This document shows, in pieces, positions 4,701 to 27,961 of a DNA stretch of 64,000 bases. The DNA is from an uncultured Candidatus Kuenenia sp. GTDB lineage: Bacteria > Planctomycetota > UBA11346. The stretch lies in assembly GCA_964654285.1 (NCBI GenBank), contig CAZZJC010000006.1:67288-131287 (forward strand). The letters are read 5' to 3'. Made by a program: the position numbers and the translations under genes. A model generated the notes under the pieces. The model made no database searches, was not told the DNA's origin, and saw only the letters and a program-made list of their open reading frames with translations. Each line of letters begins with the position of its first letter. The first letter of the stretch is position 1.

Positions 4701-4796
4701 GAAGGTTGCACCCCTGATATTGAATTTGGTGGTAGAGCCGTGGCAGGATTCTTGGCAGAAATGACGATCGATCAACGTGCACGCGCATCCGTACGT

Positions 4797-7564: not shown

Positions 7565-7682
7565 TAGGGTTTGCAGGGAGTGAGTATAATGGCGCTTGCG
7601 ACAAACGGCAACCACCAAGGCAAACGTGGATGTTGGAATCACGTTCAGACTCGGATCAGTTCGATTCATTTTAATTACATGA

Positions 7683-7691
7683 CCCCCCCCC
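7683..7691. repeat. Homopolymeric C9 tract in the divergent promoter region
   Basis: cccccccccc run at 7683-7691 between the HAD-UbiA operon start (7564, minus) and the acyltransferase start (7869, plus). Confidence 0.9.
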
Positions 7692-7868
7692 TCGATTGTC
7701 AAGCATCCCAACCACGTTAGGTTCCTCAACCATGATCCGATCCATTAAAATCACCTGGTCTTGCCCCACCCACAGTTGCCCTGAATACGAACAACCATTT
7801 GGTCATAGCGTCACTTCTTTTAAAGTCGTAGCCCGAAATAATGGGTTCAGACTCGGAACGATTGTCAA

Positions 7869-9059
7869 ATGACTGGACCAAAGTTGGAGGTTGCCACACT
7901 CGATCTGACTATCGCCAGATTCCACTCCCTCGATATTTTGAGAGGACTCGCTGCGCTTTGCGTTGTATTTTGGCACTGGCAGCATTTCTTCTATGAAGGT
8001 TCCGCACTCGGCCCATTTATACCGACTGATCAGCCGGGATTCAGATACCTCTCACTTCTGTATGCTCGTGGGTGGTTAGCTGTTGATCTATTTTTCTGCT
8101 TGTCGGGTTTTATATTCTATTGGTTGTATTCTCAGCGAATCGTGGACAGGACGATAACTCCCAGCCGATTCGCTTTATTGCGCCTCTCTCGTTTGTATCC
8201 GTTACATGTCGTCACTTTAGTTCTTGTCTTGATTGGTCAGTGGTGGCTGACTTCTGCAGGATCAAGGCCATTCGTCTACGCCCACAATGACGGATACCAC
8301 TTTTTGCTGAATCTGGCATTCGCCTCAAACTGGGGATTCGAGCGCGGATTTTCCTTCAATGCTCCGATCTGGTCTGTGTCGGTCGAAGTATTGCTGTATG
8401 CCATCTTCTTCTGCGTTTGCCGGTGGCTGCCGATTCGAGGGTTGGCCCTCGTGATCCTAGCGTTGATTGGACTCCTGGTTGTGCAACGGTTCAATCTCTT
8501 CCTCGGGAGAGGTGTTGGGTCGTTCTTTCTTGGTGGTTGCGCATTTCTTGTTTATATTAGAGTGCGAAGGTCGTCCTGTGTGGCAATTTTGACCTGGACT
8601 GTAATTGGAACCACGATGCTTTTTTGGACGATTGCTATCGTCATTGCAGTAAATCCTCAACTGAGCGCTGCCATCTCCTTGCGCGATACAACCTTATTGG
8701 CTAAATTCGATGACGCGTTGCAAGCAATGCTGGCAACTTGGCCTGTCGTTGTGCTGTTTCCTCTGACCATCCTCGCGCTGACCCTGTTCGAGACGCTACG
8801 TGGTTCGTTTGCCCGGCGATTTTCATGGATCGGGAACATTTCCTATTCATCGTATTTACTTCACTTTCCACTGCAATTTATCTTTCATGCAGTCGCTCTC
8901 CGTTGGACAACCGGCAACATGATCTTTTATGAGCCGTGGGTGATGGTATTATTCTTCACAATACTTATTGGACTGAGTATGCTGAGTTTTCATTTTTTCG
9001 AGATGCCGGTCCAGAATTATTTGCGGCGTTTCGAAATGAATTCCGTGGCCAAATGGTAA
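7869..9059 (+). CDS. Acyltransferase family 3 (OafA/YrhL-like) integral membrane O-acyltransferase
   Basis: FHSLDILRGLAALCVVFWHW...LAVDLFFCLSGF...RLYPLHV contains the characteristic acyltransferase-3 motifs and about 10 TM helices. It lies in a segment of lower GC. Confidence 0.8.
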   Translation: MTGPKLEVATLDLTIARFHSLDILRGLAALCVVFWHWQHFFYEGSALGPFIPTDQPGFRYLSLLYARGWLAVDLFFCLSGFIFYWLYSQRIVDRTITPSRFALLRLSRLYPLHVVTLVLVLIGQWWLTSAGSRPFVYAHNDGYHFLLNLAFASNWGFERGFSFNAPIWSVSVEVLLYAIFFCVCRWLPIRGLALVILALIGLLVVQRFNLFLGRGVGSFFLGGCAFLVYIRVRRSSCVAILTWTVIGTTMLFWTIAIVIAVNPQLSAAISLRDTTLLAKFDDALQAMLATWPVVVLFPLTILALTLFETLRGSFARRFSWIGNISYSSYLLHFPLQFIFHAVALRWTTGNMIFYEPWVMVLFFTILIGLSMLSFHFFEMPVQNYLRRFEMNSVAKW

Positions 9060-9188
9060 TCCAACAACGCTTTTACCTAGTGCCACCTGCCTAGATGAAC
9101 CTATCCGACCAATTAGATCGCAGTCTAAACGAATGCGAGGGATTTTCAACTCGTGTCTTTCCTCTGGTGACGTTTCGCTTACGCGATT

Positions 9189-10055
9189 TCAGATGAGCTG
9201 CTCAGGTGGATACGACCTGTAGAGCCATGACGGTTTGCGACCATCACAAGCATGGGTAGCCCTGGCGCGGCAAAATAGGTACTGGCCAAGGTCTTCTCCT
9301 CGATGCGCGACCAACGGAGCGATGGTTTTCAGGTCGTAGAATTCGCCGGCGTGATTGTCATGTACATCCGAAGAAATCAACAAATCAACCGTAAATCCGG
9401 CGTGAGTCAGCAATCGGTGGAGGTCGTGCTTGTTGTATTCACGGTTGTGCCGCCCATGCGGACCGTAATGCGAATAGGGATCGTATATATTCACGCCAGC
9501 AAGCATGCGGGCGACGTTCTCAAGTCGGCACACGTTGGGAGTGCTGAGGATAAGGGTACCCCCGGGCACCAGACTGCGGTGCAGACGAAGCAGGAACTGT
9601 AGTGGGTCGCGTATGAGATGCTCAATCACCTCGCAGCACAGGACGACCTCGAAGTTGGTTGCCCAGGGTGATTCAGCGACCTCCATGTCAAGGTTGGGAT
9701 ACGACATGTCGTAGCGTTCGCCCGTCATGGCATTAACCATCGTTTGCAAACCATTGGCAGGCAATCCCTCGAAATAATTAAGACATTGTACCTGCCAGGA
9801 TGTAAATCGTCGCAGGAGCAGGGTCGTAAAATATGGGTTTGAACCGACCTCAAGCAGACGGCCGCTGCCGGGCGGAACAAGTGACAATGTCAAGAGGAAT
9901 CGACGAAAATCCGTATCTAGGTACGAACGCAACGCTGATGGATCAGCATTGTCGAGCGAAAACCCGGCGAGCCAATCCCTGAGCGCTACTTCGTCCCATC
10001 CCGGTGGGCAGGTGAAGGGCAGCGGTGTAAGGAGCGGAAATAATTTGATCGTCAT
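9189..10055 (-). CDS. Class I SAM-dependent methyltransferase
   Basis: LLEVGSNPYFTTLLL...VVLCCEVIEHLIRDP...LVPGGTLILSTPN shows SAM-methyltransferase motifs I, II and III. The start overlaps the stop of the 1160-aa GT (ATGA). GC is lower here. Confidence 0.75.
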   Translation of the reverse strand: MTIKLFPLLTPLPFTCPPGWDEVALRDWLAGFSLDNADPSALRSYLDTDFRRFLLTLSLVPPGSGRLLEVGSNPYFTTLLLRRFTSWQVQCLNYFEGLPANGLQTMVNAMTGERYDMSYPNLDMEVAESPWATNFEVVLCCEVIEHLIRDPLQFLLRLHRSLVPGGTLILSTPNVCRLENVARMLAGVNIYDPYSHYGPHGRHNREYNKHDLHRLLTHAGFTVDLLISSDVHDNHAGEFYDLKTIAPLVAHRGEDLGQYLFCRARATHACDGRKPSWLYRSYPPEQLI

Positions 10056-13000
10056 GGGTGGTCCTGGGTTGCTTCATATAGCCCGCCTGAAACAAGCAAA
10101 GCCGTGATCTGTTCCGGCGCATGGCGCTGACGCACCCATGCGGCAGCTTGGCCCACCGTTCCCAGGTCAAGAGTGGCCCTGACGGCTGGGGCGAATTCGT
10201 GGGAATCTGCCCAGTCGCGTCCGCCACCGCTGCGTTGGGTGAGGTCGACAGTGACACCACAGCGACGGTTGACTAGAGTCGGGCGGCCAAGCGACCACGC
10301 CTCGAGGATGACCAGAGACAGGCTTTCATTGGGAGAAGGATTGATGAGCAGACCACAACCGGCTATGGCGTCCCACCGACTCGTCTCGTCTACGAAGCCC
10401 AATGCCTTCACGTCAGGATGATCGGGAACCTGCATCGCAGCCCTGCCGATCAAGACCAGGGGAGGAAGACCGGCACCGGCCGCCTGGGCAGCCAAGTAAT
10501 GGTCGAATAGAAGGTCGCACCCTTTGCCTGGGTCGATACGGCCCAGGTAGAGTATGTAACCGCGTTGCAGTCCATGACGGACCAAAAAGCGATCACTGTC
10601 CACGTTGGTAGGCGGTTGGATGGCAGCTGAGACCACAGGCCCATCCACGCTGAGGTCATGGAAACGCATCCGCACGTGCCTGCGTTCCCATTCACTGAGG
10701 TACCAGAACGCCTTGGGCAGGCGGAAAAGACGGTCCCAAAAGCCAAAACGCATGCACCATTCGTCATGAGCGCAGGGTGCCAGGATGGCACGATCAGCAA
10801 CGAGTGGCAGACCAAACCATGTGGTCGCATAGAGGTAGCCCACAAATATCACGGCATCGTATTGGTTTCCGTTGCGACGCAGGTGGTCGTTGAGGGAACT
10901 GCTCACCGGCCCTTGCAAACGCATCCATCGGTCGGCGTCGTCTGGTCCGGCATTCTCAAGTCCAGTTTGTACAAGTTCAGCACTGCACGCATCGAAGGCA
11001 GTGACGTTGCGGGGAATATCGACCTTGAAACGTCGCACCCGGACGCCCTCAACCTCGTCATCGCCAACTTGATAAAAATTCTCCCAGGTCATGTAATCAC
11101 GGGCGCAAGTTGTTAGTACCTCGACTTGGTTTCGTCCCAGACAACTACCCACCAGTCTGGCCCAAGCCAGGGCGAGGGCCTCGGCGCCGCCAGCAACCTC
11201 GCGCCCACAACGGGTGACCACCACAGCAACTTTAGGCGGAAAAGCCGCCTGCAGGGCCGACAACCAGATCGGACGAACAACAGCTGGAAGAAAGTCACGC
11301 AGTCGCTTTCGTTGGCCGATCAGGATCCGGCGGCGGTCTGCGGGTTCCATTGCGGCGGCGATGGCCGTCGCAATGGCGGTATCGTCTGCGTCTGGCGGCA
11401 AGCACACGCCAGCCCCACCCAAAGTCTCGCCCACTGCGGCATGGTTGAGGGCAACTACCGGCACTTCAAAGGCCATGGCTTCGACGAGCGGGACACCAAA
11501 GCCCTCGTGTTCTGACACTGATACGTAGACATCGGCGGCACGATACGCGGCAGCCAATTGAGCCTGGGTGGCCTTGGTAATTATGCGCACCTGTCCTGTC
11601 AGATCCTCGGCCGTGAGGTCGGCGAGAACAAAGCGAGACCAGTCATCACCAGCGTCAAAATGGCCAACTAAAATGAGACTGGCCGGTATTTTATTCGCGC
11701 GTAACCGGCGAAGGATGGCCAACAATCGATCCTGGCGTTTGTTGGGCGCTAAGCGCCCAACAAAAAGAAGGCGCGGCGACGGCAGTAAGAGCAATTCGGA
11801 TTCAAGAGCGTTCTCGGGCGGTTGACACCAGGTCTCGGGCTGAAAAGGGAGTGTCAGGATGTCACCGGCTGGCGGCAGATGGACGGCACGTGCAAACTCG
11901 TCCCGATTGAACACGGAATCGTGAAATCGTATCGGGAATGCCGCTGCCAATGCCGGCAAGGCTTCAATGCCGGCCTGCAGATTACTGGCTGTCTGAGGGT
12001 CATGCGCGAAGAACCGTGGCGGTGTGATATTGTGGTCAAGCAAAGCCTTGGGTCCGCGATATGAGACCGCCCAATCGGTCGCTGGCGAACCTATGCTGTG
12101 ATGGTAAATTATCGGTTCATCGGTAAGCGAAACCGACGGTAGCGGTAAAACTCGATCAGCTAGTGCAGGGTCGAGGTAGCGGGCGATCAGTTTGCTGTCC
12201 ATTCCCCAACTGCGAAACCAACTTTGTACTGCGATGGCCTCGGAACTAATGGCATCACCAGGGCGGCAGGCGGTCAGCACTTGGTGCAAGTGACGCCTGA
12301 TCAACGGGAATCCTGGCGGTCGGCTAAGGGAGTCGACCAGAGTAATAATGCGGTCAATGACCTTGTCCCAACTCGACAACTCGCGTCCAGTAGCTTGACC
12401 GACCTTGCCCCATGCCGCCAGTTTCTCTGCGTCTGCGTCGGCTAGTTCGCCAATGATTCGTTGCCAGTCATTATCCGAATTAGCCATGGGAGCGCCGGCT
12501 ATCGCCGCCGCCTCGGCGGTGGCGTTACACCGCGCATCGACTGCAACCGGCCGGCCTAGATGCCAGGCCTCCATGAGGACCCGTGAGTAGGCTTCGTGGC
12601 GGCTTGGAACTGCAAGGGCTAGGCAATTAGCCAGTAGCCAGTTGCGGGTGCCATTGTCGACTAAACCAAGATCATGGACGCAATTTGGCAGATCGGCATA
12701 GCTGCGCCCATCGCTACCCGGTCCAGCAAAGACAAGGTCGAGCCCGCAACCACCTGCCGCCCGCCAGCGGAGGAAGGCGTCAGTTAGAACATTGCAGCCC
12801 TTGGAGGGATCGCGACGTCCGAGACAAAGCAAAAATCGTCCAAGGCCAGAAGTCGCCGCAGGGGGCGAGGCTGGAATTGCCAACGTCTCGGGTTCGATAC
12901 CAGTGCCAACCATGTGCAGACGACCATGCAAACCGGCCCCGAGAAGCCGGATAGCCAGCGAGGCCTCGCCAGTGCTGATCGCGGCTATAGCAGGTACCGA

Positions 13001-13534
13001 CATCGCAAGACGCGAAACGGCGGCCATGCGCGCATAGCCTTCATCATGAAGGCAAGGCATCAGTATGCCACGCGATCCGGCTAGACGTACCGCATCGAGA
13101 ACTAAACCAAAACCATAGGGCAGACCTATAACTGCAGCGTAGTCTGTCACATGCCTGGCGATGCGCCGTAAAAGGCTTGGGCTATTGATCCCGTGTGCCA
13201 AGAAGGCGTCCTCGACCCCTGGAGGGATCGCTCCGACAGGTGCGTGATCCCACTCGCCGCGAATGAACCGGATGTTGGCATTATCAAAAGCCGTGCTGTC
13301 GCGCTGACTGACCAGAAAGCGGCGCACCAGCACCGGGCCATCCAGACTGAGACCGGGATGCAGGACGTTGTTCGACCAGGGATCTTGGAAACGTGGAACG
13401 CAGGTGGTCAGAATCTCCACCCGGCGTCCACGTTGACTCAAGCGATGGGCCAGGGCACGGGCCAGACTCTCGGCCCCTCCCTGGCAATTGGGGCCATACC
13501 ATGGCACGACGATAGCAATGGGTTGCCCGTTCAT
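10052..13534 (-). CDS. Three-module GT4 (GT-B) glycosyltransferase, 1160 aa, WbdA/WxcA-like polymerising mannosyl/rhamnosyltransferase
   Basis: Module 1 (aa 1-~400) IAIVVPWYGPNCQGGAESLARALAHRLSQRGRRVEILTTC; module 2 (~400-770) ...FVGRLAPNKRQDRLL...EHEGFGVPLVEAMAFEVPVVA; module 3 (~775-1160) KVAVVVTRCGREVAGGAEALALAWARLVG...VEVLTTC...LEAWSLGRPTLV. The modules are paralogous to the ORFs at 19293..21608 and 21605..22777. Confidence 0.85.
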   Translation of the reverse strand: MNGQPIAIVVPWYGPNCQGGAESLARALAHRLSQRGRRVEILTTCVPRFQDPWSNNVLHPGLSLDGPVLVRRFLVSQRDSTAFDNANIRFIRGEWDHAPVGAIPPGVEDAFLAHGINSPSLLRRIARHVTDYAAVIGLPYGFGLVLDAVRLAGSRGILMPCLHDEGYARMAAVSRLAMSVPAIAAISTGEASLAIRLLGAGLHGRLHMVGTGIEPETLAIPASPPAATSGLGRFLLCLGRRDPSKGCNVLTDAFLRWRAAGGCGLDLVFAGPGSDGRSYADLPNCVHDLGLVDNGTRNWLLANCLALAVPSRHEAYSRVLMEAWHLGRPVAVDARCNATAEAAAIAGAPMANSDNDWQRIIGELADADAEKLAAWGKVGQATGRELSSWDKVIDRIITLVDSLSRPPGFPLIRRHLHQVLTACRPGDAISSEAIAVQSWFRSWGMDSKLIARYLDPALADRVLPLPSVSLTDEPIIYHHSIGSPATDWAVSYRGPKALLDHNITPPRFFAHDPQTASNLQAGIEALPALAAAFPIRFHDSVFNRDEFARAVHLPPAGDILTLPFQPETWCQPPENALESELLLLPSPRLLFVGRLAPNKRQDRLLAILRRLRANKIPASLILVGHFDAGDDWSRFVLADLTAEDLTGQVRIITKATQAQLAAAYRAADVYVSVSEHEGFGVPLVEAMAFEVPVVALNHAAVGETLGGAGVCLPPDADDTAIATAIAAAMEPADRRRILIGQRKRLRDFLPAVVRPIWLSALQAAFPPKVAVVVTRCGREVAGGAEALALAWARLVGSCLGRNQVEVLTTCARDYMTWENFYQVGDDEVEGVRVRRFKVDIPRNVTAFDACSAELVQTGLENAGPDDADRWMRLQGPVSSSLNDHLRRNGNQYDAVIFVGYLYATTWFGLPLVADRAILAPCAHDEWCMRFGFWDRLFRLPKAFWYLSEWERRHVRMRFHDLSVDGPVVSAAIQPPTNVDSDRFLVRHGLQRGYILYLGRIDPGKGCDLLFDHYLAAQAAGAGLPPLVLIGRAAMQVPDHPDVKALGFVDETSRWDAIAGCGLLINPSPNESLSLVILEAWSLGRPTLVNRRCGVTVDLTQRSGGGRDWADSHEFAPAVRATLDLGTVGQAAAWVRQRHAPEQITALLVSGGLYEATQDHP

Positions 13535-15345
13535 GACCGTCCCCCCGGCTTGATGCTGATCAGGCCGAGATCCTGAGGACCATGGAGTGCGAGGTTAATC
13601 CTTGCCCGCGCATCCGTATCGCCGATGACAGTAGAGAGCGCCGCGCCGTCTGTATGTAAGTGCAATGGGCCGACCACCGTGAACCCGCCTTCGGCGACCA
13701 GTACTTCAAGAAGGGCGCGCGGCACCGGCCGCAAATGGGTTGGATCGAGCCAAAAAGTGTTGGCCCCCACCTGCAGGTTGGATGAATCTGGCGTCTCGAT
13801 CATCAACAGACCGCCCGGGGCCAGAGCGCGGTAGGAGGCCCGAATGAGACGCCAGATTCGATCAATCGGTAGATGCTCGACGACATGGAAGACAGAAACA
13901 ACGGCTAAGTTATCCTCAGGTTGAGACTCCAGCCAAGCGCAACCTTCATTAAGTTCAGCCCGCTGTCCCTTGATTCGGAGCGCTTCGACGAACTCTTTAT
14001 TAAGATCAATGCCGATAGGATCGCAATCTTCGGCAATCAACTCGAGCCATTCTCCACGACCACAACCGATATCAGCAACGGTGCGCAGTCCTGTGCGCGA
14101 CACAGCAGCCACAAGGTGCGGCCTATAGACTGCAACACGGTTGTGTATATCCACCATGGAACCGCGCAAACGCGCCTCGATTGCTGCGTAGACTCGGTCT
14201 AACTGCGCCTGCGTCGCATCAGAGGAGGAGAGGGGGGCCTGGGCGAGTGCGATCCGGTCGACCACAGAGGTCATTGCTGCAAGACGATGTTCGAGAGTCT
14301 GGCTTTGTAGGAGTAGGCCGGCTTCTGCCTCAACCTGATGCGCAACGCCCGCCTCCAAGTCGCCCAATTTTCCCACCTGGATTTGTAACGAGATTTCGAG
14401 AGCCTCCTGGCGTTCACCCATGGCCCGGATCTTGGCCTCGCATGGGGCGATGCGGTGTTGCGCGTCGACCACTTGCGCAAGCGCATGTGTCGTGCGCCGG
14501 GATTCCTGCTCTTGACGCTCGACGATGGTCTGAATATGCGCCTCAGTAGAACGAACGCGCTTGTCCGTGACGTCTGTCCGGGTCTCAACACCGGTCAACC
14601 TCGCGGATTGCGTGGCAAGGGATTGTTCACAGGCTTTCAGACGGGATCCAAGTTCCATTACCGATTCGGAGCCAACGTGGATGGCGTCCTCAATGGCCCC
14701 GATCTGATCGAGAATCGAGAGGATGGCCAAGTGGCGTTCGTGGTTGAGTTGGAGCACCAGATCGCGCAATGCCGTCGCTTTTGATTCCAGATTGGCGTCT
14801 ATTCGCTGAGTCTCGACAAACCGCTGATGGTTGAAATCAAGCATTTGCGCCGACAGCGCCGCGACCGATTGGTGGCGTTCGTGATTCAGAGTCAGCGCCA
14901 AGGAGCGCGTATGGGATAATTCGATCAACATATTGCGCATCTCGAGAACCTGACTCTCGATTCTTTCGCGGGCCTCAATCTCCATCCGTAATCGGCAACC
15001 GAGGGCATCACGATGGCGGTCCAGGAGTGAGAATGGAAGCAAGAGGCGTGCCAATCCAAGCAGTCGGCCGAGAATCGGGATGCGGGAAATGCGTTGACGC
15101 CAACGAAACCGGCTTAACCCCGGGAATGGTGCTGTAGCTGATCTGGACTTTCCTTCCATTGATTCAGCCAAGGCAAGGACAATTTCTAGCTTTGATAAAC
15201 GCCCGTCAGTCAAGGCGGACAGATGTAAGTTCATACCCGACGAATCGGGCCCTCTACCAAGAATCGAATGATATGCGGCAAGCAGGAACTCAGGTCCATC
15301 CAACGCCAGTAGAGCATCCATATCCACCGGATTCGGATAATTCAT
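13531..15345 (-). CDS. WbdD-like chain terminator/ruler candidate: N-terminal DUF4214, central coiled coil, C-terminal class I SAM methyltransferase
   Basis: N-terminal FLLAAYHSILGRGPDSSGMNLHLSALTDG...LALAES resembles DUF4214. About 250 aa follow with heptad-like repeats (LTLNHERHQSV..., LVLQLNHERHLAIL...). The C-terminus has VADIGCGRGEWLELI...VFHVVEHLP...LAPGGLLMIETPD, the methyltransferase motifs. The gene is ATGA-coupled to both neighbours. Confidence 0.7.
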   Translation of the reverse strand: MNYPNPVDMDALLALDGPEFLLAAYHSILGRGPDSSGMNLHLSALTDGRLSKLEIVLALAESMEGKSRSATAPFPGLSRFRWRQRISRIPILGRLLGLARLLLPFSLLDRHRDALGCRLRMEIEARERIESQVLEMRNMLIELSHTRSLALTLNHERHQSVAALSAQMLDFNHQRFVETQRIDANLESKATALRDLVLQLNHERHLAILSILDQIGAIEDAIHVGSESVMELGSRLKACEQSLATQSARLTGVETRTDVTDKRVRSTEAHIQTIVERQEQESRRTTHALAQVVDAQHRIAPCEAKIRAMGERQEALEISLQIQVGKLGDLEAGVAHQVEAEAGLLLQSQTLEHRLAAMTSVVDRIALAQAPLSSSDATQAQLDRVYAAIEARLRGSMVDIHNRVAVYRPHLVAAVSRTGLRTVADIGCGRGEWLELIAEDCDPIGIDLNKEFVEALRIKGQRAELNEGCAWLESQPEDNLAVVSVFHVVEHLPIDRIWRLIRASYRALAPGGLLMIETPDSSNLQVGANTFWLDPTHLRPVPRALLEVLVAEGGFTVVGPLHLHTDGAALSTVIGDTDARARINLALHGPQDLGLISIKPGGRS

Positions 15346-16583
15346 ACCGGCACCAGCGCCTTTTTATCCGTGGCTTCCGACAAGGTGGCTCGTAATCGGG
15401 TGTGACCTATAAACATTGGCCCAATGATGCCTTTCACTGTGAAGCTCGTAAGGTTGTCATGCCAATGGTAGCAGTCCTTAAGATGATGGTCCTGACTGTG
15501 GATGGCTACAGTGAGCGAATATTTTCCCGGGGCAATATCCATGTCCATGGTGAATCGGAAACAATAACGCTTACCGGGAACAACCTCGGGACGATGACCG
15601 AGATGCCAGGAATTGGTACCGAAGACATCCTGGCCGAAACGGTCGGTGATCTTGATCCCGATGGTCGCCTGGGGAATGGGGTGCTCGCAGTCGATCTCGA
15701 TCTCGATGGTGGTCGACTCTCCACTCTGGACCACATCGCCATGCGAGATCGAACCCAGGATGCGGGCGGCGACGATCCGGGCGGCATAGGTCCCGTAGGA
15801 TTGCTCGGCTTGCCTGGCTAAGGTGGAGATCTTCTGCGCCTGGATCCGATCCTCGCTATCTCCCATCTTGGCGAGAAGGAAATTGTAGGCGTTGGTCACC
15901 GGCTCAGGCAGTCCATCTTCGATCACCCGACCGCGATGGAGGAGGATCGCCCGATCGGTCAGGAGTTTGATCGAGTTCATGTCGTGGGAGACGAGGATCA
16001 GACTGCCGCCCTTGGCCTTGAAGGCGCGGATCCGTTCCAGGCATTTGGCGCCGAAGTGGGCGTCGCCCACCGACAGGGCCTCGTCGACGATGAAGCAGAC
16101 CGGTTCACTGTGGATGGCTATGGAGAATCCCAACCGCATCAACATGCCGCTGGAATAGGTCTTGACTGGTTCGTGGATGAAATCGCCGAGTTCGGTGAAG
16201 TCGATGATGGCCTGACGTTTGCTGGCGATTTCTGGTGGCGTCATGCCAAGAATGAGACCGCTGAGATGGATGTTTTCGATCCCGGAGAGTTGATTATTGA
16301 AACCGGCGCCGATCGCGAGCAGTCCGATCCGGCCGGCGCCATCGACGGAGATCCGGCCCTGGTCCGGGAGAAGCATGCCGGCCAGAATCCTGAGCAGGGT
16401 GCTCTTGCCGGCACCATTAGGGCCGATCACGCCGAGAGATTCACCCGGTTGCAAGGTGAAGGAGATGTCGTCCAGTGCCTGGAAATCCTTGTGATAGGGC
16501 CGCCGAAAGAGGATCTCCTTGAGCCGGTCCGCAGGATTGCGATACAGGCGAAACCGCTTGCTGATGTGGTCGACCGAAATCAT
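15342..16583 (-). CDS. wzt: O-antigen/teichoic-acid export ABC transporter ATP-binding protein (Wzt/TagH family) with a C-terminal glycan-binding domain
   Basis: [20 protein letters not shown] is the Walker A; [14 protein letters not shown] is the ABC signature; [11 protein letters not shown] is the Walker B. An extra C-terminal domain of about 160 aa is typical of Wzt. Confidence 0.9.
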
Positions 16584-17347
16584 AGGAAATCCCGGACATC
16601 ACGTTCAAGACGGCGGAAGAGCAGCACTGCCACCAGACTCAGGAGGCATCCGACGAGGAGCATCCCCATCAGGACATGCCAATCAGGGAATTGGTGCAGG
16701 ATGAAGATCCGGTGGTAGCAGTCGATGCCGATCGCGGTCGGGTTGGCCTCGACCACTGGTCGTACCGCCGCCGGCACGATGTCCTTGAGGTAGACGATCG
16801 GAGTGAGCCAGAACCAGAGCTGGAAGACGATGTTGGCAACTTCCTTGAGGTCGGGCAGGAAGACCGTGAAGGTGGCAAGGAGCAGGCCGATGCCGTAGGC
16901 GATGAGTTGCTGCGCGATGAACACCGGGATCAGGGCCACCAGCGGCCAACCAGGAAATTCCCCGTTGGCGAAAGTCAACACCAGGAGGATGCCGGTAGTC
17001 ACCAGGTAGGTGAAGGTCTCGGCCAGGATGATGTAAATTGGCAACAGAGGCAGACTGGTCTGCATCTGCTGGATCATCGGCTTTTTGTCGCTGAAGACGG
17101 TGGCGCATCGCAAGCACGTCATGCTGAAGGCGGTCCAGGGCAGCAGTCCGCTCATCAGGTAGATGCCATAACCCCAGGCGGAACCGTTGCCCGGCAGGCG
17201 GGCGGACATGATCTGGGAAAAGATCACCGTGAAGATGAAGACCATCACCAACGGCTGGATCAGGGCCCAGGTGCCGCCCAGGGCGGAGCCGCTGAACCGG
17301 TCGGTGAGGTCCCGTCGGGCGAGATGGAGGAGCAGGGCCGGCGACAT
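16580..17347 (-). CDS. wzm: ABC-2 type polysaccharide export permease (Wzm)
   Basis: MSPALLLHLARRDLTDRFSGSALGGTWALIQPL... has six TM helices in an ABC-2 permease architecture. Its stop overlaps the wzt start (ATGA). The listed 302-aa ORF has an N-terminal extension, so the start is placed at M48. Confidence 0.85.
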   Translation of the reverse strand: MSPALLLHLARRDLTDRFSGSALGGTWALIQPLVMVFIFTVIFSQIMSARLPGNGSAWGYGIYLMSGLLPWTAFSMTCLRCATVFSDKKPMIQQMQTSLPLLPIYIILAETFTYLVTTGILLVLTFANGEFPGWPLVALIPVFIAQQLIAYGIGLLLATFTVFLPDLKEVANIVFQLWFWLTPIVYLKDIVPAAVRPVVEANPTAIGIDCYHRIFILHQFPDWHVLMGMLLVGCLLSLVAVLLFRRLERDVRDFL

Positions 17348-17418
17348 GGAAGGCGCGGCACCATATAGGAGCCTTGCGCAGTATCCAGGGGGCTTGAGGT
17401 GGCGGCAACGATCCAAGG

Positions 17419-18531
17419 TCATCCCGCAGCACTGCGGGTCCGGGCGAGTTCGAGCATGGCCCACATGACCTGGGCAGAACAGTGCCAACCGCCCGGTTGA
17501 GCAGGCTGTGGTCGATGAATCCCGCCCTGTGCCAGCGCAGCCAAGGCATCAGCGAATCCCGACACCGTCAGGGACACCGGGCGCAGTGCGTCGCTGGCCG
17601 CCTCGCGCAATTCCGGCAAATCTCCCGCAATCACCGGGGTGCCGCAGCGGGCTGCTTCCAGGGCGGGCATGCCGAAACCCTCATACCGGGTAGGAAACAG
17701 CAGGGCTTCTGCCCCGGTCATCAACGCGGGGAGATCAGTCCGCGGAACATAGCCGAGATGGTGGATGGGTGCACCCGATACGCGGGCAGAGCGTGCCAAA
17801 GGATCCGCGCCCCAACCGCTACGCCCGGCGACCGCCAATTTGAGCCTGCCCAGGCGTCCAGCGGTGTGGACCTGTTCCGCAGCGGCAAGAAGCAGTCCAT
17901 AGTTTTTGCGGGGTTCCCTGGTACCGACTGCGAGGGCATAGGGTTTCTCCAAACCGTGCCGACGCAGGACCGCGCTCACCTCTGCCACCGGCCTGGGTGA
18001 GAAACCCGGGTCGGCATCCGGTCGGGCGATACCATCAACAGTATGACCATAGCGGTCCTGGATGCGCTTGGCTGTGCCCGCCGAGATGGCAACTGCGGCA
18101 TCTGCGCGCCGCAAATCACTGGCAAAGAACATCTTGGCGACGATCCGCCCGCCCAGGGTCATGGAATCAGGCGCTTCGAGGTGGACCACATCGTAGAGTG
18201 TGAGCAGTCCGGGGATCCCCTTGGGGCAACGCGGCATGGCCATGCTGCACCCCCAGAAGGCATCGATGCGGTCGCCGCGCAGCATGGCCCCGACTCGTTC
18301 GCGCATCCATACGGTCTGCGGCACGCCTCTGGGCCACCAGGGATCGGTACGCCAGAAGTGTTCGATCCCAGGCAGGTCGATATCCTGCCGACACGGCAGG
18401 TAGATGACCACTTCCAGGGGGCGGATCGCTGCCATCGCCCGCAGCAGGGCCGCGACATAGAGGCCAATTCCTGCGACGGGAGCGCGCACAGCACGGCCAT
18501 CGATGGCGAGGCGGAAGGGAGGGTCTGACAT
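17419..18531 (-). CDS. GT4 family glycosyltransferase (group 1)
   Basis: MSDPPFRLAIDGRAVRAPVAGIGLYV...VGTREPRKNYGLLL...RYEGFGMPALEAARCGTPVIAGD carries the GT4 EX7E region. The start is placed at M99 of the listed ORF because the N-terminal 98 aa look non-proteinaceous. Confidence 0.8.
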   Translation of the reverse strand: MSDPPFRLAIDGRAVRAPVAGIGLYVAALLRAMAAIRPLEVVIYLPCRQDIDLPGIEHFWRTDPWWPRGVPQTVWMRERVGAMLRGDRIDAFWGCSMAMPRCPKGIPGLLTLYDVVHLEAPDSMTLGGRIVAKMFFASDLRRADAAVAISAGTAKRIQDRYGHTVDGIARPDADPGFSPRPVAEVSAVLRRHGLEKPYALAVGTREPRKNYGLLLAAAEQVHTAGRLGRLKLAVAGRSGWGADPLARSARVSGAPIHHLGYVPRTDLPALMTGAEALLFPTRYEGFGMPALEAARCGTPVIAGDLPELREAASDALRPVSLTVSGFADALAALAQGGIHRPQPAQPGGWHCSAQVMWAMLELARTRSAAG

Positions 18532-18603
18532 CGTCGCGGGAACCCGGCTGAGGGCGAGGCCTGCATAGGCTGCTATCGGAGCGGGGCAAGATGTCCGTCG
18601 CCG

Positions 18604-19296
18604 GTGCGATCTCCGGCATGGACAGGCCCAAGCAGTCGGGATCATGGCCAACCCATGACAGGACCCAGCCCCGTCGATGAACTCATGCAGCGGGTCGCCG
18701 CCAGGGCCGCCTGGTACCGCCGGGCGGACGCCCGGGATGGTCTGGCCCTGCCGGAACCATTGCCGGCGCTGAGCCGGCCGGAAGCGCCGCGCGCGGTTCC
18801 GCAGCATCCCCGGGTCGGCCTGCATGAATTGCTCTCGCTACGAGGGGGTGATGTCGTTTCATCAGCCTATGAACGCCTGCTCTGGCGCTGCGCGAGTCCC
18901 GAGGAACTGGCCTTCCGGCTCGAACTGTTCCGCAGCGGCCGCCAAGATGTCTTCACCCTGATCCATGATCTTCGCCACAGTCCCGAGGGCATCCGTTGCG
19001 GGGTGCGGATCACCGGCAAAGGTTGGCGAAGGATCATCTTCGCCGTGCTCCGTCTTCCGATGGGCCGGCGCATGTGGCTTGGTTTGCGGGCCTTATTCGC
19101 CCTGCCCCGCTTGCGGGTCGACATCGGAGCCGAGTTGAGGCGTCAGGATCAACGTGTCGAGCGAATCGAGCACGCCCTGGGCGGCTTCGGACCGAAAGCT
19201 GCCCATGATCCGGAAACCGCTCAGGCTCTGCGGTGCCGGCTCGCGGCCCTTGAGCGTAGGGTCGCGGTCCTTGAACAGACGGTAGACCGTCCGTGA
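18604..19296 (+). CDS. DUF4214-like domain protein with a short C-terminal coiled coil (truncated WbdD-like paralog without a catalytic domain)
   Basis: VVSSAYERLLWRCASPEELAFRLELFRSGRQDVFTLIHDLRHSPEG has a DUF4214-like pattern. The C-terminus LRRQDQRVERIEHAL...LRCRLAALERRVAVLEQTV is a predicted coiled coil. An alternative start is at 18655. The stop overlaps the start of the following GT (ATGA). Confidence 0.5.
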   Translation: MRSPAWTGPSSRDHGQPMTGPSPVDELMQRVAARAAWYRRADARDGLALPEPLPALSRPEAPRAVPQHPRVGLHELLSLRGGDVVSSAYERLLWRCASPEELAFRLELFRSGRQDVFTLIHDLRHSPEGIRCGVRITGKGWRRIIFAVLRLPMGRRMWLGLRALFALPRLRVDIGAELRRQDQRVERIEHALGGFGPKAAHDPETAQALRCRLAALERRVAVLEQTVDRP

Positions 19297-21608
19297 TGAA
19301 TAAACGCATCGGCATCGTCGTCCCCTGGTATGGTGAAGCCCTGCGTGGCGGGGCAGAGACCGTGGCGCGGCAAGTGGCGCTCCGACTTGCCGCACGTGGT
19401 CATACGGTCGAAGTCCTCACCACGTGCTGCCGGTCCTTCCTGGACGACTGGGCGGTGAACCACCTGCCAGAGGGTTCGTCCGCCGATGGTCCGATACGGG
19501 TTAGCCGCTTCCCCGTCGATCCGCGCGATGCGCATGCTTTCAACTCGGCCAATGGATTTCTGCTTGGGCTGCCACCGCATCATTTCTCGCCTGGATTGGC
19601 CATTCCAGATCCGGGGTTCGTACCGCACAACCTCCACAGCGCCGCGCTCGTCCGCCATGTGGTTGACCATGCCGCAGAATACCACCGCGTTCTTTTTACG
19701 CCCTATCTGTACGGACCGATCCTGCGTGGTGCCCCGGCGGTCGCCGAACGGGCGGTTCTGCAACCCTGCCTGCATGACGAATCCTACGCCTACCTGGAAC
19801 CCATCCACGCCATGTTCCAGACAGTGCGTCGGTGCGCCTTCCTGTCCCATGGCGAGGCGGACCTTGCCGAGCGGATCTACGGTCCTGCGGTGATCGATGG
19901 TTCCATCGTGGTCGGATCGGGGATCGAAAGCGAAGAGTTAACCACGTCGGTCGCCGCCGGGGCTGATTCCCCGCTCATCCCCGAAGGGCCGTTCCTGCTC
20001 TACCTTGGTCGGCGCGATGCCACCAAGGGGGCCGACCTGCTGATCGACGGTTGGCGCCGCTACCAGGCTGCCCATCCAGGCAATCCGCTGGCATTGGTCC
20101 TGGCCGGACCAGGCCCGAAATCCTACACCGACCATGCGCTGCGGGTGACAGATCTCGGCCTGGTCAATGCCGCAACCAAGGCGGCTTTGCTGCGGGGTTG
20201 CCTTGCCCTGGTCCACCCCAGCCGCAATGAAAGCTACTCGCGCAGTCTGATGGAAGCCTGGCATTGCGGCCGCCCGGCGGTGGTTCATGCGCATTGCCCC
20301 GCCACCGCCGGGGCCATGGCGCGGGCGGGGGCAGGATGGCTTGCTAGTGAAGATCCGGATGCGTGGGCCCAGGCCATCGAGTGCGTCGCGGTATCGACGC
20401 AGGCCGAACGAGATGCGTTTGGTTCCCGTGGCGTCGCCTATGCGGCCGAGCACGCAGACTGGGAACGCTGTATCGACCGCTACGAGCAGCTCCTTGATCT
20501 TGCACCTACAACGGTGGCGACCATCCCGTTGCGAGCACGCCTGGGTCGGATCGATCAGGTCCTGACCGGATTCGACCTCGGAGATGCTATCTCGGAGGAG
20601 GCGCTCACGATCCAGCGTTGGTTGCGATCCCATGGGTGGCTCTCCGACATCGTTGCCCAGTATATCCAGGGACCGTTGCGCAGCGCCTGTGTGCCATGGC
20701 GAACTGGTCTGGTGAACCCTTCAGCCGGTATCATCTACCATCATTCGATCGGATCTGAGATCGCGACCGACGCAATTGCCCACCCCGGGCCCAAAGCCTT
20801 GATCTACCACAATATCACCCCGCCAAAATTTTTCACGGCGTATAAACCGGAACTCGCCAAGATGCTTCAGGATGGGCTCGACCATCTGCCCAGCGCTTGC
20901 GCCAGTTTCCCGCACCTCTGGGCGGATTCGGCCTTCAATGCCCGGGAATTGGCAGTTGCTGCGGGTCGACCCGTGGAGGTGCTGCCCCTGTCGGTGCCGC
21001 CCGCCAAATGGGCGGTGACGCCCGACCAGGGACTTCTCGCCGCCTTGCGCCGGGATCAGGTGCGCAACGTGCTGTTCGTCGGCCGGGTGGCGCCCAACAA
21101 GTGCCAGCATGATCTGGTGCGGATGTTCTGGCATCTGCTGCGGATGGGGGTCAATGCCAGACTCTGCCTGGTCGGACAGGTCTTCCCTGGGGATCCCTAT
21201 GTGGAGGAGGTCCAATCGCTCGCCGCCAATCTCGGCATCGCGAGCCGCGTCTGGATGCCCAACAAGATCACGGTGAGCGAATTGACCGCGGTCTGGAAGG
21301 TGGCGGATGTCTTCGTCAGCCTGAGTGAGCACGAAGGCTTCGGTGTGCCCCTGGTCGAAGCCATGCTGTTCGGCGTTCCCGTCGTCGCGTTTTCATGCAC
21401 CGCGATTGCCGAAACGCTGGGCGGTGTCGGTGTTCTGATGCCCGACAAGGGCGACCTGGTTGAAACTGCAGCAACCGTCGAGACCATCCTGGAAGATGCC
21501 AATCTGAGTGCGGAAATCGTCGCGCGCCAACGCGTGCGACGGATGGATTTCCTGCCTGCGGCAATAGAAAAAAGATATGAAACCTTGATTGGGGGGGCGT
21601 TTCATTGA
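19293..21608 (+). CDS. Two-module GT4 glycosyltransferase, 771 aa (paralog of modules 1 and 2 of the 1160-aa GT)
   Basis: IGIVVPWYGEALRGGAETVARQVALRLAARGHTVEVLTTC (module 1) and ...NVLFVGRVAPNKCQHDLV...EHEGFGVPLVEAMLFGVPVVAFS (module 2). The sequence is colinear with aa 1-~770 of ORF 10052..13534. Confidence 0.85.
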   Translation: MMNKRIGIVVPWYGEALRGGAETVARQVALRLAARGHTVEVLTTCCRSFLDDWAVNHLPEGSSADGPIRVSRFPVDPRDAHAFNSANGFLLGLPPHHFSPGLAIPDPGFVPHNLHSAALVRHVVDHAAEYHRVLFTPYLYGPILRGAPAVAERAVLQPCLHDESYAYLEPIHAMFQTVRRCAFLSHGEADLAERIYGPAVIDGSIVVGSGIESEELTTSVAAGADSPLIPEGPFLLYLGRRDATKGADLLIDGWRRYQAAHPGNPLALVLAGPGPKSYTDHALRVTDLGLVNAATKAALLRGCLALVHPSRNESYSRSLMEAWHCGRPAVVHAHCPATAGAMARAGAGWLASEDPDAWAQAIECVAVSTQAERDAFGSRGVAYAAEHADWERCIDRYEQLLDLAPTTVATIPLRARLGRIDQVLTGFDLGDAISEEALTIQRWLRSHGWLSDIVAQYIQGPLRSACVPWRTGLVNPSAGIIYHHSIGSEIATDAIAHPGPKALIYHNITPPKFFTAYKPELAKMLQDGLDHLPSACASFPHLWADSAFNARELAVAAGRPVEVLPLSVPPAKWAVTPDQGLLAALRRDQVRNVLFVGRVAPNKCQHDLVRMFWHLLRMGVNARLCLVGQVFPGDPYVEEVQSLAANLGIASRVWMPNKITVSELTAVWKVADVFVSLSEHEGFGVPLVEAMLFGVPVVAFSCTAIAETLGGVGVLMPDKGDLVETAATVETILEDANLSAEIVARQRVRRMDFLPAAIEKRYETLIGGAFH

Positions 21609-22777: not shown

Positions 22778-23819
22778 TCACGGGGTCGCGGCCGCAGTAC
22801 CATCAGCCCAGACCCGCAGGCCCTGTCGAGCCAGATACAATGGGATGACCGTGAATCCGGCCTGGGTAAGGTCGCGCTGGAGGATCCGCTTGGCCTCGGA
22901 TCGATGCCTGCAGAGCAGGGTCACGGAACCGCCGTCACCACCAGCACCATTGACCTTGCATCCAAGCACGCCATGCGCCTGGGCGATGGTGATCACACGT
23001 TCGAAATCGGTGCCAACCAAGGCAGGATGCAAGGCGCGTTGGGCCTCGGTGTTCTCGTTCCACACTGTACCCAGGCCTGACCAATCTCCACGCATCAGTG
23101 CGTCTTTAGCCCGCAGGGCCAGACTGCGGAAACGTTCGAGGCGGACATCGGCATGAGCTTCAGGTCCGAGGTGCCGGATGACGTCCTGATGCACGGCAGA
23201 CGATTGGTGCGGTTTTCCTATGTAGACCAGCACCATGCGCCGTTCGAGTTCCCACCAGAGAGGGTTGGAAAGTTGGATCGGAGACACCGACGCATCGGGG
23301 AAACGGCTCATCTCGATCAGGTTGACTCCACCGTAGGCGGCACAGAGTTGATCCTGGATGCCGCTTTGAAGGGACAGGTCTTCCGTTTCGATGCGATGCG
23401 CCAACCGCGCGATCTCGTAGGGAGTGAGCGTTCCGGCAGAAAGCCGGTCGAGAGCGGCGATGATCGCCACCGAGACCGAGGCCGAGGTGCCGGTCGAGGC
23501 CCCTGGCGGGACCTCGCAAAAGATGCTGACATCGATGGAGGTGCGTTCCGGGATCTGCAGCCGGCGCAGGGCGCATTCCAGGAGCGGCAGCTTGTCGTAG
23601 GCCCGGTCGAGCTCTTCCATGGTGAAGTGCAGGCCGAAGTTCTCGGCATGGACGGCAACCCGGGGCTGGTCAGGACGTCGTTCCCGGGTGGTAATCTGCA
23701 CCTCGACGTAGGGATAGACCGCAATGTTGCACACCCGGCCGTGACCGGCGAACCAGGTATCGGTCCAGCCTCCTACATCGGCGACGCGGATCGGGGCGAC
23801 AGCGGTGATGGTGGTCATG
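22778..23819 (-). CDS. GHMP-family sugar kinase (HddA-like), copy 1
   Basis: MTTITAVAPIRVADVGGWTDTWF...CEVPPGASTGTSASVSVAIIAAL (GHMP motif II)...KVNGAGGDGGSVTLL (motif III). The second half of the gene has lower GC3. Confidence 0.8.
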
Positions 23820-23963
23820 CGGATCGGTTTCCTTGTTTGGGCGCGCAGCCTGCCGGCAATGGGCCGGTTCGTAAAGAGGCTGTCGGTCAAGGCGGAACTA
23901 CTAGGAAAGCGGCACCCAGGATGAGCCCCTGGCATCGATGTCTGCTGTGCGAAGATCACGGGC

Positions 23964-27843: not shown

Positions 27844-27961
27844 GCGCTGAGATGATGTTGCGGTCTTGATGGTCGCAAGCTGTCAGGCGGTGAGATGAAC
27901 GGCGGATTCGGGATCGGTGGCCTGCTTGCGTTGCCTGCGCCTGTGGGAATGACAGCCGCCC

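Follow-up and report, generated by a model that had tools for sequence, protein, structure and literature searches.

The gene at 13,531–15,345 (minus strand) of a 64,000-nucleotide window from an uncultured Candidatus Kuenenia sp. encodes a 604-aa protein with an ATG start, in which a DUF4214 domain, a hydrophobic helix pair, a coiled coil and an O8-type SAM methyltransferase follow one another. We propose, at a probability of roughly two in three, that this protein is the chain-terminating O-methyltransferase, and a reversed ruler, of an ABC-transporter-dependent pathway for a capped, O-antigen-type glycan. What is known of chain-length control by terminator ‘rulers’ comes, to our knowledge, from a few enterobacterial prototypes, all of which have their catalytic module N-terminal to the coiled coil. 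In the protein described here, the domain content, homology, gene context and helical periodicity are observed directly; a methyl cap, membrane association, ruler function, the oligomeric state and the role of DUF4214 are what we infer. The feature that sets it apart from WbdD is the reversed order of anchor, coiled coil and catalytic domain, together with a base made of DUF4214 and hydrophobic helices.

Domain layout of the terminator candidate

The open reading frame is exactly that of the earlier note, and an identical protein (P0001) has been called in public assemblies by independent gene finders. The AF2 model has a mean pLDDT of 77.7. At the N-terminus lies a four-to-five-helix bundle (residues 9–68; 15,142–15,321, minus strand; AF2 pLDDT 93–96), which Pfam confirms as the DUF4214 head noticed earlier (PF13946 at residues 19–67, E = 2.9e-7, 30.9 bits against a GA of 23.2) and in which F20, A24, R31, D34, G37, K52, E64 and G65 are conserved columns among 32 homologues. 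It is followed by an Arg-flanked hydrophobic helix–break–helix, LSRFRWRQRISRIPILGRLLGLARLLLPFSLL (residues 77–108; 15,022–15,117, minus strand), delimited by hydropathy and AF2. This segment holds the peak Kyte-Doolittle window of the protein (1.59), is modelled as helices 77–88 and 90–102, and contains a P90 and a G93 that are conserved in the 32-homologue alignment. Across 72 family members both of its flanks are net positive and it has internal arginines (median 3), which is why the sequence favours a monotopic or amphipathic anchor, with putative membrane binding, over a transmembrane helix.

A true transmembrane helix would place the DUF4214 head in the periplasm, where it could sense the exported glycan, and leave the methyltransferase in the cytoplasm. 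Elsewhere, DUF4214 occurs chiefly in proteins that are secreted or lie at the surface, and the median length of the uncharged stretch is 21 residues (72 family members), but we regard this topology as very improbable given the charged flanks, the internal arginines and the conserved proline breaks. Most relatives also carry a strongly basic helix at the N-terminus, upstream of the module, which disfavours translocation of the N-terminal tail, and the 604-aa protein has no signal peptide. In one relative (P0210) the module is C-terminal and comes after the cytoplasmic methyltransferase and coiled coil: an FkbM methyltransferase occupies the N-terminus, DUF4214 and the hydrophobic module end a coiled coil of ~800 aa, and a 1,413-aa multi-GT4 protein is encoded next to it. 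From this layout it follows that DUF4214 and the hydrophobic module always lie opposite the catalytic end.

The C-terminal domain (residues 374–604; 13,534–14,226, minus strand; AF2 pLDDT >90) is a class I SAM methyltransferase of the WbdD-O8 type with a Rossmann fold, matched by Pfam Methyltransf_23 at residues 422–558 (E = 2.3e-16) and also by Methyltransf_25, 11 and 12. BLASTP aligns it with residues 5–158 of E. coli O8 WbdD at 38% identity over 154 aa (E = 1e-34), identity to WbdD-O8 over the whole domain is 34% in the family alignment, and the best PDB match is 3dli (sequence E = 6.7e-21, fold TM 0.83). The kinase-methyltransferase WbdD of O9a gave no PDB sequence match at E ≤ 1 and was absent from the Foldseek top 50. 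In 32 sequences the SAM motif D425-x-G427-x-G429-R-G431 is invariant, as are R430, E432, W433, H487, E490, H491, E517, T518, P519 and N523, and D534, P535 and H537 of the D534-P-T-H537 motif. The near-invariant ETPNPEN motif reads ETPDSSN here (N520D, P521S), and the domain stands apart within the family, with no more than 44% identity to any other methyltransferase domain. Both departures count against the proposed role, as does the lack of the N-terminal ‘IDVDELMxRIRxEV’ helix that most relatives have.

No kinase family of Pfam or NCBIfam matches the protein, and the AF2 model contains no unassigned folded domain, which leaves no globular segment for a cryptic kinase like that of K. pneumoniae O7 ORF6. 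The earlier note had seen this absence correctly, along with the coiled coil and the C-terminal methyltransferase, but had treated it as unusual, which it is not: WbdD of E. coli O8 and K. pneumoniae O5 is a methyl-only O-antigen terminator, and the methyltransferase found here is of the O8 type.

Gene order and the predicted cap

The order wzm-wzt(Wzt_C)-X-multiGT4 is that of the E. coli O8 cluster, with the terminator candidate in the wbdD slot. The minus-strand operon opens with a 370-aa GT4 glycosyltransferase (17,419–18,531; PF13439 and PF00534; gene call), followed by the Wzm ABC-2 permease (16,580–17,347; PF01061; a 255-aa gene call in L001) and a Wzt ABC ATPase with a C-terminal CBM (15,342–16,583, CBM at ~15,393–15,806; PF00005 and PF14524 Wzt_C, E = 2e-31). 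Downstream of the candidate, the operon encodes a candidate polymerase of 1,160 aa (10,052–13,534), in which three GT4 modules (three Glyco_trans_1_4 stretches) are arranged in a WbdA-like organisation with only weak local similarity to WbdA-O8, and ends with a second, stand-alone methyltransferase of 288 aa (9,189–10,055; Methyltransf_23, E = 1.2e-12). Through ATGA start/stop overlaps, translation of the terminator gene is coupled both to wzt upstream and to the triple-GT4 gene downstream. The genes of a capped ABC-transporter system are present, namely Wzm, a CBM-bearing Wzt and, adjoining them, the terminator and a multi-module polymerase.

The Wzt of the locus is 36% identical to Wzt-O8 over its full length. 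Between its CBM and the CBD of A. aeolicus Wzt, a domain that binds 3-O-methyl-Man/Rha caps, identity is 37%, and the CBM keeps six of the ten cap-contact residues (I299, T346, A348, H350, H355 and W362). O8-type enzymes methylate the sugar hydroxyl directly, and it is the O8-type methyltransferase together with the conserved cap contacts of the CBM that leads us to predict a direct O-methyl cap. The locus does contain the two separate GHMP-kinase genes noticed earlier (22,778–23,965 and 28,580–30,043), but the suggestion that they phosphorylate the chain end in trans is not needed for such a cap and is not supported: the kinases that they match act on sugars or sugar phosphates (HddA, fucokinase, galactokinase), with scores far under the family cut-offs, and the CBM resembles a binder of 3-O-methyl sugars.

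A methyltransferase in this position could also be decorating and non-terminating, acting on internal residues or adding a second methyl, with chains ended by the 288-aa methyltransferase or by export alone. PA5457/PA5459 of P. aeruginosa set a precedent, since they resemble WbdD-O8 and are not WbdD-like length regulators. Like the candidate, they and the ‘WbdD’ of the P. syringae TET operon are WbdD-O8-like SAM methyltransferases, and they belong to D-rhamnan (CPA) loci with wzm/wzt; in P. syringae, wbdD mutants with Tn5 insertions have rough LPS, and the 120 best-ranked relatives of the P. fluorescens member do not include this ‘WbdD’. The atypical acceptor-side motif of the 604-aa protein points the same way, as does the second methyltransferase of the operon, which might be the actual capper or add a further methyl. 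However, PA5457/PA5459 have no membrane- or GT-interacting domains and no ruler behaviour, whereas the 604-aa protein has both an anchor and a coiled coil and is encoded at the wbdD position next to a Wzt with a CBM, a feature that implies a capped system. The 288-aa methyltransferase, moreover, is at best a marginal relative of the WbdD-O8 family (against the terminator methyltransferase profile, E = 7.7e-7 over 47 residues), and we consider a purely decorating role unlikely.

The helical spacer and chain length

As a terminator, the protein would act on chains that multi-module GT4 enzymes are expected to extend in the cytoplasm on Und-PP. Its WbdD-O8-type domain would O-methylate the non-reducing terminal sugar and so stop elongation, after which the CBM of the adjacent Wzt would read the methyl cap and license export via Wzm/Wzt. 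DUF4214 and the Arg-flanked helix pair may form the membrane-proximal base, and the coiled coil of ~265 residues would keep the catalytic domain off this base, such that only sufficiently long chains are capped, as by a WbdD-like ruler of reversed polarity.

The spacer (residues ~109–372; 14,230–15,021, minus strand) was delimited from AF2 and heptad periodicity. It consists of two very long AF2 helices, 104–223 and 229–369, and has a single proline in 257 residues. Over residues 113–369 the 3.5-residue hydrophobic periodicity reaches z = 3.0 against shuffles, and periods of 3.6 and 3.67 give no signal in the same test; in 42-residue windows between 197 and 392 the value rises to as much as 5.7. 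A single heptad register runs from ~199 to ~372, straight through the AF2 break at 224–228, and the signal is weaker, with several register shifts, in the N-terminal third (105–198). These proxies of periodicity, register and modelled helices make the coiled coil of the earlier note a probable one.

There is a real, if modest, chance that the protein is a terminator whose helical region is no ruler, folding instead as an antiparallel hairpin or serving oligomerisation or as a scaffold, with chain length set by the stoichiometry of polymerase and terminator or by kinetics. In E. coli, the WbdA:WbdD occupancy is known to affect length. The model has a low-confidence break at 224–231 between arms of 120 and 141 residues, where a hairpin that returns the methyltransferase to the base is conceivable, and the N-terminal third is the part with the weak heptad signal. 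Against this stands the single register that spans the putative break. Spacers also vary about seven-fold in length among the 72 DUF4214-type members (73–502 aa), in the near-identical proteins P0025 and P0027 through the copy number of a tandem repeat, which fits a length-setting element. Finally, characterised terminators consistently have a coiled coil, and in every one of them it serves as a spacer (PMC11231755).

Homology to O8 WbdD, the O8 gene order and the long heptad-periodic spacer all support the WbdD-like terminator proposed in the earlier note. With E. coli O8 WbdD it shares the motifs FExRxRG, DIGCGRGEWLE, HxxEHL and DPTH, a coiled coil without a kinase, a gene position flanked by a CBM-bearing wzt and the gene of a multi-module GT4 polymerase and, as predicted here, the O-methyl cap. 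O8 WbdD differs in starting with the methyltransferase (1–215), which is followed by a short coiled coil, ‘SWRITQPLRW’ and a basic C-terminal tail. In the 604-aa protein the order is reversed and the spacer about three times longer, neither the ‘SWRIT.PLR’ motif nor a basic C-terminal tail of the WbdD type was found, and the methyltransferase domains fall into separate sister groups, one for each polarity. The WbdD of O9a and K. pneumoniae O3 (PDB 4AZS family) is likewise a terminator with a coiled-coil spacer, a membrane-proximal base, a WbdA-like GT4 and a Wzt CBM, but it has a kinase, makes a methyl-phosphate cap and is of opposite polarity, and its methyltransferase is not detectably related by sequence. 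In K. pneumoniae O12 WbbB, O7 ORF6 and O4 ORF7, a terminator module is also fused to a coiled coil in an ABC-transporter pathway, but this module is N-terminal to the coiled coil, the chemistry is beta-Kdo, methyl-phosphate and Kdo, respectively, and none has DUF4214.

Family spread and the role of DUF4214

The methyltransferase family occupies at least 536 genomic loci, and 72 DUF4214-type members were analysed. Relatives of the same architecture directly adjoin a wzt with a CBM in 13 of 25 DUF4214-type loci, among them loci of Stutzerimonas, of several species of Pseudomonas and of Methylobacter marinus, where the order is manC-manB-wzm-wzt-X-GT4. It speaks against the proposed role that roughly every second DUF4214-type relative lacks a wzt in the surrounding 8 kb. 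The reverse-polarity class is found in Pseudomonas, Stutzerimonas, Methylobacter, Inquilinus-like alphaproteobacteria, Acidobacteria and others. The phrase ‘untested alternative architecture’ in the earlier note stands in its first word, given that no experimental study of any member with reversed polarity was found in the literature searched, but the architecture itself is very common and one source already auto-names it ‘O-antigen chain-terminating methyltransferase’.

We know of no established function for DUF4214, common as the domain is. In the terminator, docking to a GT/polymerase complex is its most likely role, and possibly one that is shared by an ‘anchor-only’ paralogue of 213 aa (18,655–19,296, plus strand), the first gene of the divergent operon and one that is called in public assemblies. 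This protein has an N-terminal helix, a DUF4214-like bundle, a hydrophobic helix and a short coiled coil but no catalytic domain. Pfam makes no DUF4214 call in it; the family N-module profile matches at E = 2e-12 over 99 of 104 profile positions, and the AF2 model (pLDDT 86) has the helix pattern of the terminator. Orthologues are P0208, P0209 and P0272. Its stop overlaps the start of a dual-module GT4 gene (19,293–21,608, plus strand; ~771 aa, two GT4 stretches), and in the Inquilinus-type loci L034 and L052 a similar double-GT4 gene likewise adjoins the anchor-only paralogue.

DUF4214 may instead be a glycan-recognition module that holds the nascent or capped chain in the terminator and tethers secreted proteins to the same O-antigen at the surface. 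Pfam-verified secreted-type DUF4214 proteins (protease, RTX and Ig/BNR fusions) are indeed encoded within 8–10 kb of WbdD-O8-type terminators in Acidobacteria, Cyanobacteria, Alpha- and Gammaproteobacteria and Verrucomicrobia. One secreted RTX-DUF4214 protein, Psh of P. putida (PP_1794), is encoded beside an O-antigen locus, and RTX-DUF4214 and protease-DUF4214 genes flank this terminator class in Pseudomonas and Stutzerimonas. Psh, however, is exported by a T1SS and has neither a methyltransferase nor a coiled-coil stalk, whereas the 604-aa protein must use cytoplasmic SAM, and that Psh binds O-antigen is a proposal drawn solely from in-silico docking and from the neighbouring genes. By structure, DUF4214 resembles only the linker domains of phycobilisomes, modules of protein–protein assembly, and these matches are not significant (best E = 0.18). 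By sequence, the terminator-type DUF4214 is a divergent subgroup, since the terminator profile matches secreted copies at 1e-5 to 1e-9 and terminators at 1e-20 to 1e-35. Hence, we find glycan recognition doubtful. Similarly speculative is a wider view of DUF4214 as a capped-O-antigen module on both sides of the membrane: inside, as the base of reverse-polarity terminators and anchor-only paralogues, organising the GT/polymerase or holding the nascent chain; outside, as the tether of secreted proteases and Psh-like RTX proteins to the O-antigen of the adjacent locus.

The reverse-polarity class constitutes a very widespread alternative to the enterobacterial prototypes, with an O8-type methyltransferase at the far end of the stalk and a DUF4214 base. 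Its members bear on whether a ruler works in either polarity, on how a polymerase is recruited without the membrane-binding, WbdA-recruiting C-terminal region of WbdD and on the role of DUF4214. The clustering with secreted DUF4214 proteins, including phage-shielding Psh-like ones, suggests a link between O-antigen capping and the anchoring of surface proteins, which, if true, would matter for phage resistance and glycoengineering. If DUF4214 does act on both sides of the membrane, no earlier element that recognises glycan or machinery would have joined chain capping to surface-protein display.

Domains, stalk and methyltransferase type

The gene at 13531-15345 (-) encodes a 604-aa terminator candidate from an ATG start and is called identically in public assemblies. 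Pfam places a DUF4214 domain at residues 19-67 (30.9 bits, gathering score 23.2) and a class I SAM methyltransferase at residues 422-558 (Methyltransf_23, E 2.3e-16), and no kinase family is found in Pfam and NCBIfam scans. An AF2 model with 32 homologues as input (mean pLDDT 77.7) resolves residues 9-68 as a confident helical bundle, 77-102 as two short helices covering a hydrophobic stretch flanked by Arg, 104-223 and 229-369 as two very long helices, and 374-604 as a confident Rossmann domain. The Pfam, NCBIfam and AF2 results thus agree with an earlier note, which had described a 604-aa ORF with a DUF4214 head, a C-terminal methyltransferase and no kinase. Since the AF2 model leaves no unassigned globular region, and hence no spare folded domain, a cryptic kinase like that of K. 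pneumoniae O7 ORF6 is ruled out.

The long coiled coil that was also proposed is borne out by the AF2 helices and by a 3.5-residue hydrophobic periodicity across the helical region (z=3.0 overall, up to 5.7 in 42-residue windows at residues 197-392), where periods of 3.6 and 3.67 give no signal. This judgement comes from hydrophobic periodicity, heptad register and AF2 helices rather than from a dedicated predictor. On the model, it is possible that the helices fold back as a hairpin at residues 224-228; one heptad register, uninterrupted by the AF2 break, runs from residue ~199 to ~372, and the pattern is less regular at 105-198. Self-BLAST finds no duplication inside the coiled coil. Family comparison shows the hydrophobic segment to be net-positive on either flank, with internal Arg and conserved Pro breaks, and because of these features it would anchor the protein to the membrane in a monotopic or amphipathic fashion, its two ends lying in the cytoplasm.

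The E. coli IAI1 O8 cluster has the order manC-manB-wzm-wzt-[425-aa methyltransferase]-[1213-aa GT]-wbdB-wbdC, in which the methyltransferase is WbdD-O8 and the GT is the polymerase WbdA. Residues 385-537 of the candidate align with residues 5-158 of WbdD-O8 at 38% identity (E 1e-34), and WbdD-O8 is a methyl-only terminator (PMC11231755; PMC3560663). Judged by sequence, the candidate's methyltransferase is of the O8 type, and because its homologue is methyl-only, the absence of a kinase is no anomaly. The earlier reading as a WbdD-like terminator is therefore strengthened by the O8-type homology, whereas the missing kinase, which it had treated as unusual, is unremarkable in a type that is kinase-free. 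A relationship to the kinase-methyltransferase WbdD-O9a was rejected: although this protein is in the PDB, a PDB sequence search gives no match to it at E<=1, and the top 50 Foldseek fold matches do not include it. The best PDB match in both sequence and structure is 3dli, an uncharacterised A. fulgidus methyltransferase. Across the 32 homologues the SAM motif DxGxGxG and the family motifs are invariant. The candidate has ETPDSSN where the family has ETPNPEN, a divergent acceptor-side motif with two near-invariant positions changed. Its closest full-length relatives are from Inquilinus limosus (42%) and 'Mycobacterium sp. KBS0706' (40%).

Operon, transporter and surrounding glycan genes

Upstream on the same strand lie a GT4 gene (17419-18531, -), wzm (16580-17347, -) and wzt with a carbohydrate-binding Wzt_C module, or CBM (15342-16583, -); downstream are a 1160-aa three-module GT4 (10052-13534, -) and a 288-aa methyltransferase (9189-10055, -). 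ATGA overlaps join the candidate to both wzt and the three-module GT4. The encoded Wzt is 36% identical to Wzt-O8 over its full length, and its CBM is 37% identical to the carbohydrate-binding domain of Aquifex aeolicus Wzt, which binds 3-O-methyl-mannose/rhamnose caps as established by ITC, crystallography and cryo-EM (PMC9445017). Six of the 10 contact residues named in that study are identical here (I299, T346, A348, H350, H355 and W362), including three of the four in the methyl pocket and the Trp lid. Because these contacts are conserved, the partner Wzt looks built for reading a terminal sugar that is O-methylated, in keeping with a terminator of the O8 type. A caveat to this assignment is the second methyltransferase (9189-10055) in the same operon.

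Two GHMP kinase paralogues (22778-23965 and 28580-30043, both -) had been put forward as supplying a phosphorylation step in trans. Their best family scores are to HddA, fucokinase and galactokinase, all far below the family cut-offs (for the heptose-7-phosphate kinase HddA, ~104 bits against a cut-off of 600), and from these matches they probably activate an unusual sugar. We rejected a role as trans-acting chain-end kinases as unnecessary and unsupported, given these sub-threshold sugar-kinase matches and a terminator that has no need of such a step.

Several further genes accompany the locus. At 3586-7729 (-) are a UbiA-family phosphoribosyltransferase-HAD fusion (PRK08238, 544 bits), a DprE1-like FAD oxidase, a DprE2-like SDR and a small Multi_Drug_Res/EamA-like membrane protein, which together look like a polyprenyl-phosphate-pentofuranose donor pathway (cf. 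PMC11127046) and suggest periplasmic pentofuranose decoration. The region 25352-28480 (-) contains an APS kinase (27124-27843, 205 bits) flanked by a 591-aa protein with only a weak match to the putative GTs LA_3751/LA_3752 and by a 214-aa protein with no family match; together these genes may form a module of the glycan island for sulfation. An Acyl_transf_3 membrane acyltransferase (7869-9059, +), convergent at the operon end, suggests O-acetylation of the glycan. G+C drops from 65-77% in the flanks to 50-63% across the glycan locus (~8000-28000), consistent with acquisition of an island by horizontal transfer. An Rfam scan of the whole window gives no match, and a promoter/terminator scan does not rise above shuffled expectation.

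Reversed domain order and the DUF4214 module

WbdD-O8 begins with its methyltransferase (1-215), followed by a short coiled coil, the motif SWRITQPLRW and a basic tail, and the C-terminal region of WbdD serves as membrane anchor and WbdA docking site (PMC11231755). In contrast, the candidate runs from DUF4214 through a hydrophobic helix pair and a ~265-aa coiled coil to the methyltransferase, and the SWR motif is not found in it. It would work like WbdD-O8, with which it shares a catalytic family, but because order and anchor differ it falls outside the architectural definition of WbdD. In the characterised terminators WbdD O8/O9a, WbbB, O7 ORF6 and O4 ORF7 the terminating module is N-terminal to the coiled coil, and none of them has DUF4214 (PMC11231755).

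Database searches show both polarities within one methyltransferase family. Defining class A as having the methyltransferase C-terminal and class B as having the WbdD-O8 order, we find that the methyltransferase domains split into two sister groups by class: 130 of 133 class A members and 25 of 30 class B members have their nearest neighbour in their own class, and mean identity is 41% between classes against 47-56% within. With one genome scanned per species, relatives are encoded at 536 or more loci. Among the best 80 of these the methyltransferase is C-terminal in most, and 25 carry DUF4214; 13 of these 25 directly adjoin a CBM-bearing wzt, as in Methylobacter marinus (manC-manB-wzm-wzt-X-GT4), several Pseudomonas spp. 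and Stutzerimonas stutzeri. However, in roughly half of the DUF4214-type relatives no wzt lies within 8 kb, which tempers the reading as a terminator. The class is abundant in Pseudomonas; its members carry either a generic methyltransferase annotation or JGI's label 'O-antigen chain-terminating methyltransferase'. As regards the P. syringae 'WbdD', which has been studied genetically and might belong to this class, the top 120 relatives of the P. fluorescens member include no P. syringae protein.

Spacer length in 72 DUF4214-type members ranges from 73 to 502 residues (median 190; 265 in the candidate). The near-identical relatives P0025 and P0027 differ in copy number (3 vs 6) of a 30-residue coiled-coil repeat. 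Such copy-number differences suggest rapid evolution of stalk length and are as expected of a length-setting element. Tandem repeats of 26-30 residues or of 'KAD'-type ~15-residue units are seen in the spacers of P0025, P0027, P0009 and P0004.

The N-terminal module also occurs without a catalytic domain. A 213-aa paralogue (18655-19296, +), the first gene of a divergent operon, comprises an N-terminal helix (PVDELMQRV), a DUF4214-like bundle, a hydrophobic helix and a short coiled coil (AF2 pLDDT 86). Pfam does not call DUF4214 in it, but 99 of 104 positions of the family profile for the whole module are matched (E 2e-12). The end of the paralogue's reading frame overlaps the beginning of a dual-module GT4 (19293-21608, +), and in the Inquilinus-type loci L034 and L052 the same protein adjoins a similar two-module GT4 gene. 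Orthologues are P0208 (51% identity), P0209 (45%), P0272 and P0222; many short matches resemble fragments cut at contig ends and are left out of the true short proteins. The candidate lacks the basic N-terminal helix ('IDVDELMxRIRxEVARRK') of most class A relatives, even those without DUF4214, and the paralogue has it; candidate and paralogue may in this way share out the work.

In the opposite polarity, the 1505-aa protein P0210 (L088:6366-10883) has an N-terminal methyltransferase of another type (FkbM), a ~800-aa coiled coil, an SWRITRPLR motif and, at its C-terminus, four to five DUF4214 copies and a hydrophobic helix. Its gene is coupled to a 1413-aa multi-GT4, with a Sulfotransfer_2(faint)+Wzt_C protein nearby. 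In either polarity, the DUF4214 and anchor module lies at the stalk end away from the catalytic domain, which argues for a role as a 'base'.

A fold search with the paralogue model gave no significant match (best E 0.18), and nearly all the top matches, consistent but weak, are phycobilisome linker domains. These domains are protein-protein assembly modules. For the terminator's DUF4214 we therefore favour docking or scaffolding, with glycan binding as a less probable rival. Secreted-type DUF4214 proteins (trypsin-like and M10/metalloprotease, RTX, and Ig/BNR fusions; Pfam-verified) are encoded within 8-10 kb of a terminator at no fewer than 13 loci in five phyla, namely within +/-8 kb at L032, L040, L063, L065, L074, L078, L083, L003, L008, L009, L012 and L029, and at L087:15823-21431. 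They recall P. putida Psh, for which binding to O-antigen was proposed from docking and gene neighbourhood only.

Proposed mechanism and novelty

The analysis shows the domains, homology, synteny, periodicity and CBM pocket conservation of this system, and we infer the chemistry of the cap, attachment to the membrane, action as a ruler, the oligomeric state and the function of DUF4214. We propose, with a probability of roughly two in three (0.68) for the five-step explanation as a whole, that the protein is a chain-terminating O-methyltransferase. GT4 enzymes would extend an Und-PP-linked chain, and the C-terminal O8-type methyltransferase would O-methylate its non-reducing terminal sugar. The methyl cap would then be read by the Wzt CBM and the chain exported by Wzm/Wzt. 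DUF4214 and the hydrophobic base would hold the protein at the membrane and at the GT complex, and the coiled coil would set the distance, up to ~390 Å for 265 extended residues at ~1.48 Å per residue, or ~250 Å for the regular heptad part. As the P. aeruginosa PA5457/PA5459 precedent illustrates, a protein can have the homologous methyltransferase without being a ruler.

Our literature search on DUF4214 and terminating methyltransferases, which did not extend to the census of Mann, Kimber & Whitfield 2019 (Glycobiology 29:822), found no paper on a reversed, DUF4214-based form. The basic function can be predicted, and automatic annotation already names it; the novelty lies in the architecture and the link to DUF4214, both of which are uncharacterised and testable.
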